Program-made: the position numbers and the translations under genes | Notes under the pieces: model-generated | Told to the model about the DNA's origin: nothing | The model's database searches: none | The model's input: only the letters and a program-made list of their open reading frames with translations | Shown here: positions 5,584-34,378 of the stretch, one piece after another | Layout of the letters: the number at the start of each line of letters is the position of its first letter | Position numbering within the stretch: position 1 is the first letter of the stretch | Source: Anaerolineales bacterium | GTDB taxonomy: Bacteria; Chloroflexota; Anaerolineae; Anaerolineales; Villigracilaceae | Direction of reading: 5' to 3' | DNA: 64,000 bases | Assembly: GCA_030680795.1 (NCBI GenBank) | Contig: JAUXUL010000036.1 | Location: forward strand, 16,766 to 80,765

Positions 5584-5625
5584 TTGACAGGGGGATGGTT
5601 CTATGTGAGAATTCAGAAACTGAAT
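5584..5625 (+). promoter_or_regulatory. Candidate promoter plus dyad operator, regulator unit 4
   Basis: TTGACA 5584-5589, N17, GAGAAT 5607-5612. ATTCAG 5611-5616 / CTGAAT 5620-5625. Confidence 0.6.
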
Positions 5626-5634
5626 GCTCAACCT

Positions 5635-6114
5635 ATGACCGAAGTCAAACAGCACGAATACGCCCTTCTCAATGAAATTGCCCAGAACTCAATGGTAACC
5701 CAGGCGAATCTATCTGACCGCCTGGGCATTGCGGTTGGCAGCGTCAATTGGTACATTAAACGATTGATCCAGCGCGGCTGGGTCAAGGTCTCTCATCTTG
5801 ACCGTACGCGCTTGAAGTATGATCTCACGCCTGATGGGATGGCAGTATTCACGCAAAGGGCTTTGCTATATGCGCGTGATTCTTTGAAAGTGTATGGAAA
5901 TCTTCGGCAGAAAGCAAAGGCACTGGTCACGGAATTACAGGAACAAGACCTTCAGCAGGTCTATCTCAATGGCGATGATGAGGCCATGGATATACTGCGT
6001 CTCACTTGTATTGAAGCGGGGATTCAAATAAGTGATATTCCAGAAGAGTGTATCCTTGAAGCCGTTGGGCAGGGGTACCAGGTGAAACGCTTGAAAGGAA
6101 AAAACCATGCCTAA
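5635..6114 (+). CDS. wHTH regulator paralog 4
   Basis: ORF 5584-6114, conserved start ATG 5635 (MTEVKQHEY). wHTH GIAVGSVNWYIKRLIQRGWVKV. Divergent C-terminal half VYLNGDDEAMDILRLTCIEAGI. 8-nt overlap with the next gene. Confidence 0.75.
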   Translation: MTEVKQHEYALLNEIAQNSMVTQANLSDRLGIAVGSVNWYIKRLIQRGWVKVSHLDRTRLKYDLTPDGMAVFTQRALLYARDSLKVYGNLRQKAKALVTELQEQDLQQVYLNGDDEAMDILRLTCIEAGIQISDIPEECILEAVGQGYQVKRLKGKNHA

Positions 6115-23209: not shown

Positions 23210-23231
23210 TTTGGATTACGAAGTACTGTAT

Positions 23232-23699
23232 ATGGAATCAACAAACGACGAACTCCGCGAACTTTCCCTGCTTGAGCAGATCGAAAGCGACCCAAATGTG
23301 AATCAATCCGCGCTGGCAGTGCAGCTTGGCGTTGCAGTTGGCACGGTCAATTGGCATTTAAAGCGCCTGATTGCAAAAGGCGCTGTCAAAGTCTCGCGCG
23401 CTGAGCGCAAGAAACTGCGTTATATCATCACGCCCGAAGGCATTGCCCTGCGCGCCCGCCTCGCACTGGATTATGTGGAACGTTCATTTTTAGTTTATCG
23501 CCGCACACGTCAGCGCGTGAAAGATCATGTTTCAATAATTCGCCATGCCGGCTTCGATCGGGTGCGCATCGTTGGTTCTGGTGATGTGGCGGATATTTGC
23601 AAACTTACCTGCCTCGAACAAGGCATTTCAGTTGTGAACGATAAAACTGTACCAGCCTTAATTTTGGATGGATATAAGATCAGATTGGATGGTTTGTAA
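23232..23699 (+). CDS. wHTH regulator paralog 5 (divergent)
   Basis: ORF 23211-23699, ATG 23232 (MESTNDEL). QSALAVQLGVAVGTVNWHLKRLIAKGAVKV; C-terminal RVRIVGSGDVADICKLTCLEQGISVV. Confidence 0.7.
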   Translation: MESTNDELRELSLLEQIESDPNVNQSALAVQLGVAVGTVNWHLKRLIAKGAVKVSRAERKKLRYIITPEGIALRARLALDYVERSFLVYRRTRQRVKDHVSIIRHAGFDRVRIVGSGDVADICKLTCLEQGISVVNDKTVPALILDGYKIRLDGL

Positions 23700-30716: not shown

Positions 30717-31727
30717 ATGAACTGGAAAAATCAAATCGTACTCGTCACTGGCGGAACGGGATCGTTTGGCAAAAAATTCATCAAAATTTTGCTTGAGGAA
30801 AAACAGCCGAAGAAAGTCATTATCTTCAGCCGTGATGAATTGAAGCAGCACGAAATGCAGGTCGGTGGATACAACCAGGAAAACCTGCGTTATTTCATCG
30901 GCGACATTCGTGACCGTGAGCGCCTCGTGCGCGCCATGCATGGTGTGGATATTGTTGTGCATGCGGCGGCGCTTAAGCAGGTCCCTGCTTGTGAATATAA
31001 TCCGATGGAAGCCATCAAGACCAACATCATGGGCACAGCCAATGTTGTTGAAGCGGCTCTCGATGCGGGCGTCAAAAAAGTGATGACCATCAGCACCGAT
31101 AAAGCCGTCAGCCCCGCGAATCTTTATGGCGCAACCAAACTTGCCGCAGAGAAGTTGACCATTCAAAGCAACGCGTATGCCGGGGGTTCAGCAACCAGAT
31201 TTTCATGCGTCCGATACGGGAACGTCGTCGGCTCGCGCGGTTCGGTGGTTCCGCTTTTTTTGAATCAGCGTACGAACGGAAAGATCACCATCACAGATGA
31301 CCGCATGACCCGCTTCTGGCTTTCGCTTGAGCAGGGTGTCCGTTTTGTAACCACCTGCATCGAACAAATGGAAGGCGGCGAAGTTTTTGTTCCCAAGATC
31401 CCCAGCACAAAAGTTGTTGACCTGGCCAGAGCCATTGCGCCGAAGGCTGAGATAAACATCATCGGGATTCGCCCCGGCGAAAAATTGCATGAGATGCTCA
31501 TCTCGGAAGATGAAGCGCGCCACACAATTGAACTCGATAAAATGTTTGTTGTGCAGCCTGCCGAAGCCACATGGTTTGGTTATTCATGGCAATCCAAAGG
31601 CAAATCTTTAAAAGAAGGTTATTACTATTCCAGCGATAATAATTCAGAGTGGCTCGATGTTGAAGGAATTAAAAAATATATTGCGCCGTTTGATGAAATG
31701 TTCACGCAAGGCCAACTCGAAGGATGA
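30717..31727 (+). CDS. pseB: UDP-N-acetylglucosamine 4,6-dehydratase, PseB/FlaA1 type
   Basis: 336 aa. Recalled colinearity with H. pylori FlaA1: LVTGGTGSFGK, SRDELKQ, HAAALKQVP, TNIMGT, STDKAV.PANLYGATK, RYGNVVGSRGSVVP, MTRFW, GGE.FVPKIPS, GIRPGEKLHE. Confidence 0.8.
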   Translation: MNWKNQIVLVTGGTGSFGKKFIKILLEEKQPKKVIIFSRDELKQHEMQVGGYNQENLRYFIGDIRDRERLVRAMHGVDIVVHAAALKQVPACEYNPMEAIKTNIMGTANVVEAALDAGVKKVMTISTDKAVSPANLYGATKLAAEKLTIQSNAYAGGSATRFSCVRYGNVVGSRGSVVPLFLNQRTNGKITITDDRMTRFWLSLEQGVRFVTTCIEQMEGGEVFVPKIPSTKVVDLARAIAPKAEINIIGIRPGEKLHEMLISEDEARHTIELDKMFVVQPAEATWFGYSWQSKGKSLKEGYYYSSDNNSEWLDVEGIKKYIAPFDEMFTQGQLEG

Positions 31728-31835
31728 GAAGGTCAGCATGTATATAAGTACACATGTACAAAGTTTGACCGCATGTTTTCATGTATACGTGTTTACCTGT
31801 AACCATTTCAGCGCATTTATCCCGTGAGCATAATC

Positions 31836-32753
31836 ATGAAAATACTCGTCACAGGTGTCAGCGGCTTACTTGGCATCAACCTCGCGCAAGAGTCAATGAA
31901 TGCACATGATATTGTCGGCGTGGATCGCGGCACACTGGTCAACGCGCCCTTTAAAATCTTGAAGGCGGATTTGCTGGACTCTGGCGCAGTGGACTCCATT
32001 CTCGACTCTGTCCAGCCTGAATGGCTGATCAACTGCGCGGCTCTCGCGGACCTCGAGGACTGTGAGGACAACCGAGAGCTTGCCCGCCGCCTCAACATTG
32101 ACCTGCCCGCTCAAATGGCAAAGGCTTGCAAAGCGCGGAATATTTCATTCGTCCACATTTCAACCGACGCAGTTTTCGACGGCGAAAAAGATGGTTTCTA
32201 CACAGAAGAAGATACGCCCCATCCGCTTGGAGTGTATTCGCAAACCAAGCTGGCAGGGGAGCAGGCAGTTTTAGCTGAAAACCAAAAAGCAATCGTAGCG
32301 CGTGTCAATTTCTACGGTTGGAGTTTAAGCGGCAAGCGCAGCCTCGCCGAATTTTTCTTAAACAATCTTACCAATCACAAAAGCATAAGTGGTTTCTCAG
32401 ATATTATCTTCTGTCCAATGTTGGTGAACGCCACGGCTCGTACTTTGATTAAAATGCTGCAGCGCGGCTTTAGAGGTCTCTATCATCTCGTGGGACCGCA
32501 AGCCATGAGTAAGTATCAATTTGGCGTGGAGGTCGCCCGTAAATTCAGTTTGCGGGAAGGTGGAATTTTGCCAAAATCCATTCATGCCTCCAGCCTCAGC
32601 GCCCGTCGTTCCAACAATTTATGGCTTTCAACCCACAAGTTATCCACAGACTTGGGTGAGGTTATGCCTCCGTTCTCCACAGGTTTAGACGAGTTTTATA
32701 GACAATACCAGCAGGGTTACCCACAGAAAATCCGCAGTTATCAACAAAAGTAG
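31836..32753 (+). CDS. RmlD-like sugar-nucleotide 4-reductase (dTDP-4-dehydrorhamnose reductase family)
   Basis: ORF 31824-32753. MKILVTGVSGLLG, VHISTDAVFDG, YSQTKLAGE. Confidence 0.65.
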   Translation: MKILVTGVSGLLGINLAQESMNAHDIVGVDRGTLVNAPFKILKADLLDSGAVDSILDSVQPEWLINCAALADLEDCEDNRELARRLNIDLPAQMAKACKARNISFVHISTDAVFDGEKDGFYTEEDTPHPLGVYSQTKLAGEQAVLAENQKAIVARVNFYGWSLSGKRSLAEFFLNNLTNHKSISGFSDIIFCPMLVNATARTLIKMLQRGFRGLYHLVGPQAMSKYQFGVEVARKFSLREGGILPKSIHASSLSARRSNNLWLSTHKLSTDLGEVMPPFSTGLDEFYRQYQQGYPQKIRSYQQK

Positions 32754-32834
32754 GTCAAATTGCCAATTTGCCCTACCAGAGTTGTCCACAGGAAGACCCG
32801 AGTTATCCACAGGTTCCACCCACCTTTATCCACA
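32640..32834 (+). promoter_or_regulatory. Array of seven same-orientation DnaA-box-like 9-mers
   Basis: Perfect TTATCCACA at 32640, 32803 and 32826. One-mismatch boxes at 32673 (TTCTCCACA), 32717 (TTACCCACA), 32738 (TTATCAACA) and 32782 (TTGTCCACA). Six of seven are followed by G. Confidence 0.55.
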
Positions 32835-32848
32835 GAAACGGAGGATTT

Positions 32849-33919
32849 ATGGAAATTAAATTCGGAAAACACACAATTGGATTAAATCACCCTACTTATT
32901 TCATTGCAGATATCGCCGCCAACCACGACGGCAACCTGGATCGTGCCAAAGAACTGATCCGTCTTGCCAAAGAAGCAGGCGCGGACGCAGCCAAGTTTCA
33001 GAATTTCGACGCCCCAAAGATCGTCTCGGATTACGGCTTTAAGGCGATGAATGGCGGACAGGTTTCACATCAAGCCGCTTGGAAGAAATCGGTGTTTGAA
33101 GTTTACAAAGGCGCCTCGATTCCGTTTGACTGGTCGATGACCCTTGTTGAGGAATGTAATGAAGTGGGCATAGACTATTTCTCATCTCCGTATGATTTTG
33201 AAGCCATTGATTTTCTCGATCAATATGTGGAAGTCTACAAGGCTGGCTCCGGCGAAATTGACTGGATCGAAGCCCTGGAACGCATGGCGAGTAAGGGCAA
33301 ACCGTTTTTCGTTGCCACTGGCGCATCAACAATTGGTGAAGTGCAAAAAGCAGTTCATGCCATCTTGAAAATTAACAAACAACTGGTTTTGATGCAGTGC
33401 AATACTAACTACACTGCCCGCCTGAATAATTACGATCATCTCCATGTGAATGTTTTGAAAACCTATGCGACGATGTTTCCCGATGTGATTCTGGGACTGT
33501 CAGACCATACGCATTCGGTTGCGCCTGTCCTCGGCGCGGTGACCTTGGGCGCACGCGTGATCGAACGTCACTTCACGGATAGCAATGACCGCGAAGGTCC
33601 CGATCACAAGTTTGCGATGAACCCTCAGAATTGGGCAAAGATGGTCGAAGAGACTCGTTTGTTGGAGCGTTCGCTTGGAAGCCCCGATAAATTCATCGCA
33701 GAGAATGAACAGGATACACAAATTGTGCAGCGTCGTTGTCTGCGTGCCGCGCGCGATATCAAAGCTGGCGAGACATTTACCCGTGACATGATCGACGTGC
33801 TACGACCCGCCACACCTGGCGCGATCAAGCCTGACCAGATTGAGGATGTCACGGGAACAAAAGCGTTGGCAGATATGCCTCTCGGCAAGGAATTGCGCTG
33901 GACGGATTTAGGAGAGTAA
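32849..33919 (+). CDS. NeuB/PseI/LegI-family nonulosonic acid synthase with C-terminal SAF domain
   Basis: GGAGGA precedes ATG 32849. YFIADIAANHDGNLDRAKELIRLAKEAGADAAKFQ, GLSDHT, ERHFT. SAF-like C-terminus ARDIKAGETFTRDMI. Confidence 0.8.
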   Translation: MEIKFGKHTIGLNHPTYFIADIAANHDGNLDRAKELIRLAKEAGADAAKFQNFDAPKIVSDYGFKAMNGGQVSHQAAWKKSVFEVYKGASIPFDWSMTLVEECNEVGIDYFSSPYDFEAIDFLDQYVEVYKAGSGEIDWIEALERMASKGKPFFVATGASTIGEVQKAVHAILKINKQLVLMQCNTNYTARLNNYDHLHVNVLKTYATMFPDVILGLSDHTHSVAPVLGAVTLGARVIERHFTDSNDREGPDHKFAMNPQNWAKMVEETRLLERSLGSPDKFIAENEQDTQIVQRRCLRAARDIKAGETFTRDMIDVLRPATPGAIKPDQIEDVTGTKALADMPLGKELRWTDLGE

Positions 33920-33973
33920 GTTCCAAGTGCGGTGTTTCAAGTTTCATGTTCAAAAAGCCCAAAGGAGAACGAA

Positions 33974-34378
33974 ATGACAGCAGTGACGAGGTTTGAGGAG
34001 CTGATTGCATGGCAGGAAGCGCGGAAGCTAGTGCAACTGGCTTATCAGGTCACATCGGATGGATCCTTTGCAAAAGATTTTGAGATGAGAGACCAGCTTC
34101 GAGGAGCGGCGTTATCTTCAATGACGAACATTGCGGAAGGCTTCGACAATGAATCATCCATCGAGTTTGCCCGTTTTCTCGGCATGGCTCGTCGTTCTGC
34201 CGTGGAAGTGCAATCCTTGTGTTACGCCGCCCTGGATGTCAAACACATCACTGATGATGTTTTTCAAACTTGTTACGATCAGGCGAAAAAGACCCAAGCC
34301 ATCATCGGCGGATTGAAAAAAGCCGTTCTGAAAAATCCCCGTCGCCCTGCAAAACCTTTAACTGCTTCCAAAACTTGA
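33974..34378 (+). CDS. Four-helix-bundle protein (23S rRNA intervening-sequence protein family)
   Basis: FEELIAWQEARKLV...RDQLRGAALSSMTNIAEGF...EFARFLGMARRSAVEVQS. Confidence 0.75.
   Translation: MTAVTRFEELIAWQEARKLVQLAYQVTSDGSFAKDFEMRDQLRGAALSSMTNIAEGFDNESSIEFARFLGMARRSAVEVQSLCYAALDVKHITDDVFQTCYDQAKKTQAIIGGLKKAVLKNPRRPAKPLTASKT

Follow-up and report, generated by a model that had tools for sequence, protein, structure and literature searches.

A conserved, helically phased array of DnaA-box repeats at the end of an RmlD-like gene in Anaerolineales: a probable DnaA-box cluster outside the origin

The stretch of DNA analyzed here (the window: 64,000 nt of contig JAUXUL010000036.1, from an Anaerolineales bacterium of the phylum Chloroflexota) is one big polysaccharide gene cluster, with nearly all of its genes on the + strand. 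The end of an RmlD-like gene, together with the spacer before the next gene, carries an array of direct repeats with the sequence of the DnaA box. Judging from the comparison with related genomes, this array is a real and deeply conserved DNA-level element, and it most likely represents a new DnaA-box cluster in Chloroflexota, unusual in being half encoded within a gene. The genes preceding the array code, in this order, for a Wzm/Wzt ABC transporter, a capsule-synthesis-family protein, a methyltransferase, a PseB-like dehydratase, and the RmlD-like short-chain dehydrogenase/reductase (SDR); those following it code for a NeuB-family synthase, a small four-helix protein, a glycosyltransferase, an acetyltransferase, and a DUF4910 protein. 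Neither tRNA genes nor Rfam families were found in the window. The features are listed below, with window coordinates; box positions with a sign are counted relative to the stop codon of the RmlD-like gene.

31824..32753, + strand: gene of the RmlD_sub_bind-family SDR (PF04321, E = 4e-62); its last ~40 codons hold the conserved core of the array
32629..32637, + strand: weak box CAACCCACA (6/9), 11 bp start to start before the first perfect box, a "double box" arrangement
32640..32648, + strand: perfect box TTATCCACA at -113, coding for Leu-Ser-Thr in codon frame 0 of the RmlD-like protein
32673..32681, + strand: box TTCTCCACA with one mismatch at -80, coding for Phe-Ser-Thr
32696..32704, + strand: degenerate box TTATAGACA with two mismatches at -57; mostly TTATACACA in relatives
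32717..32725, + strand: box TTACCCACA with one mismatch at -36, perfect in most relatives; second codon phase, (G)GT-TAC-CCA-CAG, coding for Gly-Tyr-Pro-Gln
32738..32746, + strand: box TTATCAACA with one mismatch at -15, coding for Ser-Tyr-Gln-Gln; the identical variant is found in nearly all relatives
32750..32776, + strand: palindrome or hairpin GTAGGTCAAATTG-C-CAATTTGCCCTAC (13/13 nt), overlapping the stop codon (32751-32753) and filling a 44-bp (four-turn) gap of the array
32782..32790, + strand: intergenic box TTGTCCACA with one mismatch at +29
32803..32811, + strand: perfect intergenic box TTATCCACA at +50
32826..32834, + strand: perfect intergenic box TTATCCACA at +73, ending 5 nt before the neuB ribosome-binding site GGAGGA
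32849..33919, + strand: gene of the NeuB-family synthase, the downstream neighbor here, though not in every relative

A pattern search showed that the perfect boxes at 32640, 32803, and 32826 are the only perfect copies of TTATCCACA in the window, where 0.46 would be expected; the same search gave the one-mismatch boxes at 32673, 32717, 32738, and 32782. All seven strong boxes are on the + strand, six of them run on into CACAG, and the repeat unit is really an 11-mer, GTTATCCACAG. The original prediction, made by reading the sequence, had described these seven 9-mers with their strand, their CACAG extension, and start-to-start spacings of 33/44/21/44/21/23 nt, and all of its coordinates were reproduced by reading and pattern search. 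The same applies to the four boxes that it placed at the end of the RmlD-like gene in two different codon phases (all within the last 38 codons) and to the three in the 95-nt spacer before the GGAGGA (32840) and ATG (32849) of the synthase gene. An additional, eighth box is the degenerate one at 32696, inside the 44-nt gap between 32673 and 32717, which gives 8 boxes within 195 bp. It had also been claimed that three perfect copies in under 200 bp could not be due to chance; with ~0.022 boxes expected per strand per 195 bp, the Poisson estimate of P(≥7) is ~4e-16. Outside the array, the window contains 22 one-mismatch boxes versus ~14 expected (z ~2.3), and a second cluster was not seen.

The array is not peculiar to this genome. 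We recovered 80 orthologous loci from a genome scan with the RmlD-like protein (64 to 87% protein identity), all of them from Anaerolineales or other Chloroflexota metagenome-assembled genomes, and examined ±6 to 10 kb of sequence around each. It should be noted that these loci are kin by descent, and the counts across them are of non-independent events. Boxes at about -113, -80, -57, -36, and -15 from the stop codon were present in all 80, and 73 had further boxes after it, commonly near +28, +50/60, +113, +134, and +155; in the other 7, the boxes were confined to the coding sequence. The number of boxes per relative ranged from 5 to 13, with virtually all of them on the + strand. Both conservation in relatives and an exceptional box density had been named beforehand as marks of a genuine element, and both were found: the array zones contain 13.6 boxes per kb versus 0.28 per kb in the remaining 810 kb of the loci, and for perfect boxes the figures are 6.0 and 0.015 per kb, an enrichment of ~400-fold (in all, 268 perfect copies across the 81 array zones). 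The gene order around the locus was also strongly conserved. Carriers of the array include metagenome-assembled genomes labelled Anaerolinea thermophila (L048) and Brevefilum fermentans (L011), and in the complete or near-complete assemblies OW818655.1 and JAXLVS010000001.1 the locus is at 2.99 of 4.26 Mb and 4.19 of 4.89 Mb, respectively.

The most divergent orthologues hold the fewest boxes. In one relative (L042), six near-identical 21/22-nt units (CTATCCACAggatacgcta) extend from +28 to +164 after the stop codon, a recent tandem amplification that shows how the array grows. Together, these two observations suggest that the array has accreted since its origin. Only about one-quarter to one-third of the loci have the hairpin at the stop codon, so that it is not universal to the element. 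It was found with a different sequence in ~20 to 30 of the 80 loci, with compensatory changes and often with a ..ATTGCCAAT.. center, and no T-tract follows it. It could be a terminator-like or stabilizing hairpin, or a protein site within the four-turn gap of the array.

The part of the array inside the RmlD-like gene provides a way of separating selection on the DNA from selection on the protein. Set against the codon usage of the remainder of that gene (the background), the box codons are near-fixed to rare synonymous choices. In the box at 32640, Leu is TTA in 45/64 sequences (background, 5%), Ser is TCC in 65/65 (20%), and Thr is ACA in 54/65 (17%); in that at 32673, Ser is TCC in 69/70 (20%) and Thr is ACA in 54/68. 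The boxes in the other codon phase behave in the same way, with Gly as GGT in 67/70 (20%) and Pro as CCA in 69/70 (15%) at 32717. At 32738, Ser is AGT in 57/57 (13%), and the following codons are TAT in 68/70 and CAA in 57/57. Over conserved degenerate columns, the normalized codon entropy was 0.42 in box codons versus 0.75 in the other codons of the gene (Mann-Whitney p = 2.7e-4). This check of synonymous sites, proposed along with the original prediction, thus came out in its favor, and the codon statistics show selection at the DNA level inside the gene.

The protein has been reshaped as well. Distant RmlD-like homologues keep the shape of the C terminus with different residues (LAAALG, AQSDG, and GYPARIR versus LSTDLG, FSTG, and GYPQKIR), and the residues LST, FST, YTQ, YPQ, and SYQQ stand where those homologues have unrelated ones. 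In two distant loci with the same operon and the same winged-helix regulator (RmlD-like identity, 45 to 51%), neither the region around the gene end nor the spacer has a box with ≤1 mismatch. The presence of the operon without boxes in these relatives implies that the array was overprinted on a preexisting gene end at the base of the clade. On these comparisons, it is a clade-specific element with order-level conservation. Chance or protein constraint as the source of the boxes was ruled out by shuffles, the Poisson estimate, the fixation of rare codons, and the box-less distant relatives.

In 39 of the loci, 0.3 to 3.4 kb separates the array from neuB, mostly carrying DUF4260, NUDIX, GDPD, DUF3800, or PMT_2 genes. 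In all of these, the array remains at the end of the RmlD-like gene and no boxes are found ahead of neuB; therefore, the array is not a neuB element. The original prediction had included, among its options, an internal promoter of the synthase gene controlled by DnaA. This did not hold, since the array keeps to the RmlD-like gene wherever other genes are inserted before neuB, and no sigma-70-like site was found on the + strand of 31600-33200 (the promoter consensus of Chloroflexi being assumed to be sigma-70-like). The slot just 3' of the array (L007-L080; equivalent to 32835-32848 of the window) is itself a hot spot of variable cargo, with flanking genes that are 75 to 95% conserved. Often no more than 0 to 30 nt are left between the array and the following start codon, and the ATG is itself overlapped by the last box in two loci (L036 and L067), from which it follows that the array is transcribed as part of the operon.

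This position brings up a transcriptional function, in which a phased DnaA complex would act as an orientation-specific roadblock or attenuator that ties neuB and the distal glycan genes to replication, with any titration of DnaA being incidental. We regard this as possible, though doubtful. The array lies wholly inside a co-directional transcription unit without a promoter-like site and runs from the gene end to 0 to 30 nt from the next start codon in many gene arrangements, part of the loci have the hairpin after the stop codon, and DnaA roadblocks to elongating RNA polymerase have been described in E. coli (cited in PMC11317965). However, the gene immediately downstream varies between loci (neuB, DUF4260, PMT_2, and others), seven loci keep only the boxes in the coding sequence, and eight to thirteen boxes far exceed what is found at known regulatory sites. 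Moreover, in the distant relatives this operon has no box at all.

Across the orthologous loci, distances between neighboring intergenic boxes peak at 10, 21-22, 32, 43, 53, 64, 74, and 85 bp. With spacers <70% identical to each other counted once (137 classes), the best period of spacer length was 10.5 bp, with a resultant R of 0.90, so that the spacings first noticed as rough multiples of a helical turn are so in the relatives too. The spacer sequences have changed, but the lengths have kept to the helical pitch of B-DNA. Diverged spacers with lengths locked to 10.5 bp point to proteins lined up along a single face of the double helix and speak against a motif acting in RNA. In addition, weak boxes (at least 6/9) are enriched 10 to 12 bp from strong ones (8 to 10% versus ~1%), and two relatives (L073 and L078) have a box with ≤1 mismatch 11 bp upstream of the first strong one. 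This double-box geometry, with a weak box near a strong one, is needed by E. coli DnaA in vivo (PMC11317965). The strongest independent signals are the fixation of rare codons against saturated synonymous sites elsewhere, the diverged spacers of kept length, and the box-less distant relatives.

We find it very improbable that the repeats work as an mRNA motif, i.e., repeated GUUAUCCACAG bound by an RNA-binding protein or by DnaA and controlling the translation of the next gene or the stability of the transcript. In its favor, the region is transcribed and every copy is in sense orientation, the last copy touches or extends into the following ribosome-binding site or start codon, and binding of DnaA to "rDnaA boxes" in RNA has been proposed in one paper (PMC10989985). 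However, RNA binding leaves unexplained why the spacers follow the B-DNA pitch, including odd multiples such as 32 and 53, and the bases flanking the boxes match those of DNA boxes at origins (see below). A structured RNA was likewise rejected; the fold of the region is ordinary (z = -0.8), and there are no Rfam matches in the window.

We then compared the boxes with genuine DnaA arrays. The logo of the intergenic boxes is TTATCCACA, with 0.79 to 1.00 per position, i.e., the DnaA consensus at all nine positions. A metagenome scan for three perfect boxes spaced 21 to 23 bp provided a comparison set of at least 120 loci. In 25 of them, dnaA or dnaN was beside the array and they were marked as origins (319 perfect boxes); one was confirmed by homology as a Deinococcota dnaA-dnaN origin region. 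The flanks of the Anaerolineales intergenic boxes (A at -2, 0.63; G at -1, 0.50; G at +9, 0.73; T at +12, 0.53; i.e., aG-TTATCCACA-G..T) are similar to those of the 319 dnaA/dnaN-adjacent boxes (0.71, 0.60, 0.50, and 0.56, respectively). The dnaA/dnaN-adjacent arrays also have one orientation, with spacing peaks at 11-12 and 21 bp (distances of 21 to 23 bp were the selection criterion) and minor ones near 33, 44, and 53 bp. The origin arrays between dnaA and dnaN (for example, L096, L088, and L161) share with ours the 9-mer, the flanking bases, the same-orientation runs, and spacings that are multiples of ~10.5 to 11 bp. They differ in that here there is no unwinding element, skew switch, or adjacent dnaA/dnaN, and the dominant spacing is 21-22 bp rather than 11-12 bp. 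The R1 and R4 boxes of E. coli likewise read GTTATCCACAG. The sequence gagTTATCCACAg is listed at oriC and datA in a table of PMC11317965.

Several metagenome contigs (L111, L163, L154, L138, and L141) carry one-orientation runs of perfect boxes in exact 11-, 21-, or 22-bp steps, with up to 24 boxes and no match to dnaA or dnaN on the contig. One such array (L151) begins 5 nt after a Prim-Pol/AAA_25 replication gene, and another (L087) is inside an unannotated open reading frame of 387 amino acids near a RusA gene. These long runs may be origins of mobile elements or DnaA sponges. In another locus (L186, 3869-3943), a phased array of four boxes directly follows a class II ribonucleotide reductase operon. 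Ribonucleotide reductase is a classic DnaA-regulated function, though the boxes of L186 lie on its 3' side.

The window contains four paralogous HTH_24/MarR-like winged-helix genes of ~160 to 180 codons (38-580, 1702-2181, 5584-6114, and 23211-23699), each heading a sub-operon. An orthologue of the last one, with 66% identity, heads the same operon in a distant locus (L205). A clade-specific binder of direct repeats other than DnaA, for instance one of these regulators, would make the match to the DnaA box coincidental, and we consider this improbable. The heading of sub-operons by these paralogues and the location of the array in a polysaccharide cluster without replication genes nearby speak for it. 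Against it, the consensus is the DnaA box at nine of nine positions, and the flanks match those of dnaA/dnaN-adjacent boxes. For the nearest winged-helix gene, a distant relative without boxes has an orthologue whose recognition helix is nearly the same, which led us to reject that regulator as the binder, and no boxes were found upstream of the operons that these regulators head. MarR-type proteins, furthermore, usually bind palindromes. The unrelated direct-repeat regulator allowed for by the original prediction is therefore weakened, although it keeps some of its standing.

Dense, oriented, and phased perfect boxes, conserved across a clade, have the look of an origin, and origin-prediction software could well flag the array, mistaking the locus for oriC in Anaerolineales genomes. 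Nevertheless, that it is the chromosomal oriC, or a dormant or secondary origin, seems extremely improbable. GC skew does not switch, averaging +0.027 on the upstream side and +0.022 on the downstream side over 39 loci, and the cumulative skew climbs over the whole window. Genes are co-directional (+ strand) on both sides, and half of the array is within coding sequence. No homologue of DnaA or DnaN was found by tblastn in the window, as had been noted from the sequence, or in any of the 80 orthologous loci (L001-L081 searched). The array region has 55% A+T, and its only 40-nt stretch at 70 to 75% A+T is the start of the neuB coding sequence, gone where neuB is displaced; outside that coding sequence there is no AT-rich unwinding element. 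The view that an origin was the less likely option, and that no obvious unwinding element was present, is thus borne out.

A non-origin cluster is recognized by at least four to five dense boxes outside oriC, and here there are 8 boxes in 195 bp with origin features absent. We conclude that the array is probably a non-origin DnaA assembly site of the kind of E. coli datA or the DnaA-box clusters (DBCs) of B. subtilis. Among the options of the original prediction, this is the best supported one on the grounds of conservation, synonymous-site constraint, 10.5-bp phasing, and oriC-like flanks. We infer from the boxes both that DnaA binds the array and what the binding would do. Eight to thirteen boxes are arranged in one orientation and on one helix face, in steps of 21-22, 32, 43-44, or 53 bp. 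Each high-affinity box (aG-TTATCCACA-G) would hold one DnaA molecule, and further ATP-DnaA would settle on the weak sites 10 to 12 bp off and complete a head-to-tail oligomer, in the manner of genuine origin arrays. As nothing adjoining the array can be unwound, the complex would be nonproductive, and the array would act as a DnaA sink that damps or times the initiation of replication, as datA or the DBCs do. We think that this is its most likely role. As the array sits in a transcribed operon that leaves no space for a promoter, the same complex might also block, in a DnaA-dependent way, transcription that reads through to neuB and the distal genes; alternatively, RNA polymerase might strip DnaA off the array.

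Several points weigh against such a cluster. Known ones tend to lie near oriC, and a sink has no obvious need to overlap coding sequence or to abut the next ribosome-binding site. The dominant spacing is two helical turns and not the 11 to 12 bp of tight DnaA filaments, and the fill-in sites are weak. The DnaA-box consensus used here may not be that of the Anaerolineales DnaA itself. An IHF-type site was not identified, the 44-bp gap being by eye a palindrome rather than of the WATCAANNNNTTR type, and no systematic scan was made; consequently, hydrolysis of DnaA-ATP in the style of datA cannot be claimed.

Known systems help to place the DnaA-box cluster proposed here. In the origin of phage lambda, a working one, the iterons are within gene O and are bound by the phage's own O protein. 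The array resembles it in having phased direct repeats for an initiator (predicted, in our case) overprinted on coding sequence and differs in lacking any mobile-element signature or match to phages or plasmids. A plasmid or phage iteron origin was discarded for want of similarity to plasmid or phage records, the flanking genes being conserved glycan-synthesis genes. DnaA-reactivating sequences (DARS) have their core boxes in opposed orientation, and they were also discarded, with virtually all boxes here on one strand.

With the DBCs of B. subtilis, the array shares at least four boxes in 50 to 100+ bp outside the origin, a location between genes or at their ends, and conservation among relatives. 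B. subtilis belongs to a lineage without SeqA or Hda, and Chloroflexota is not known to have either. Clusters of this type are predicted to be widespread in bacteria that lack SeqA and Hda, and in B. subtilis they restrain initiation in a manner that depends on copy number and position (Okumura 2012, PMC3245932). One of them is conserved downstream of the gene gcp, with no known role (Ishikawa 2007, PMC2533591). However, DBCs are mainly intergenic and near oriC and have a known deletion phenotype, while this array is half written into coding sequence, in two codon phases, with one orientation and strict 10.5-bp phasing. E. coli datA also has high-affinity boxes outside the origin, including aG-TTATCCACA-G, which there take DnaA from circulation, and its complex is modulated by read-through transcription (PMC10950094). 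It differs in having about five boxes over ~1 kb and needing an IHF site to stimulate DnaA-ATP hydrolysis; the boxes here are far denser. The cluster at oriCII of Pseudomonas aeruginosa, upstream of gidA, is similarly an origin-like box cluster that does not fire, and DnaA binding there regulates the neighboring operon (PMC13438810). That cluster is upstream of a promoter near the true origin, whereas the array is inside an operon without a promoter.

A bolder version would be a purpose-built coupling device, i.e., a phased DnaA filament in an envelope glycan operon, partly encoded by the C terminus of an enzyme. The level of DnaA-ATP would control whether transcription passes on to the operon's distal half, and transcription of the operon would strip and release DnaA for initiation. 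We hold this to be unlikely. If true, envelope synthesis and the initiation of replication would be reciprocally linked via one DNA element in filamentous Chloroflexi.

No datA- or DBC-like element in Chloroflexota was described in the literature searched, and replication control is almost unexplored outside Proteobacteria and Firmicutes. The array offers a concrete, conserved target of 200 to 300 bp for the study of DnaA in this phylum. It is also a clear bacterial example of a protein C terminus reshaped to carry a predicted DNA-binding array, useful for the study of dual coding and synonymous constraint. Lastly, the small four-helix protein encoded between neuB and the glycosyltransferase (33932-34378) belongs to the 23S rRNA-intervening-sequence family (a four-helix bundle), and its gene is present in about a quarter of the orthologous loci.

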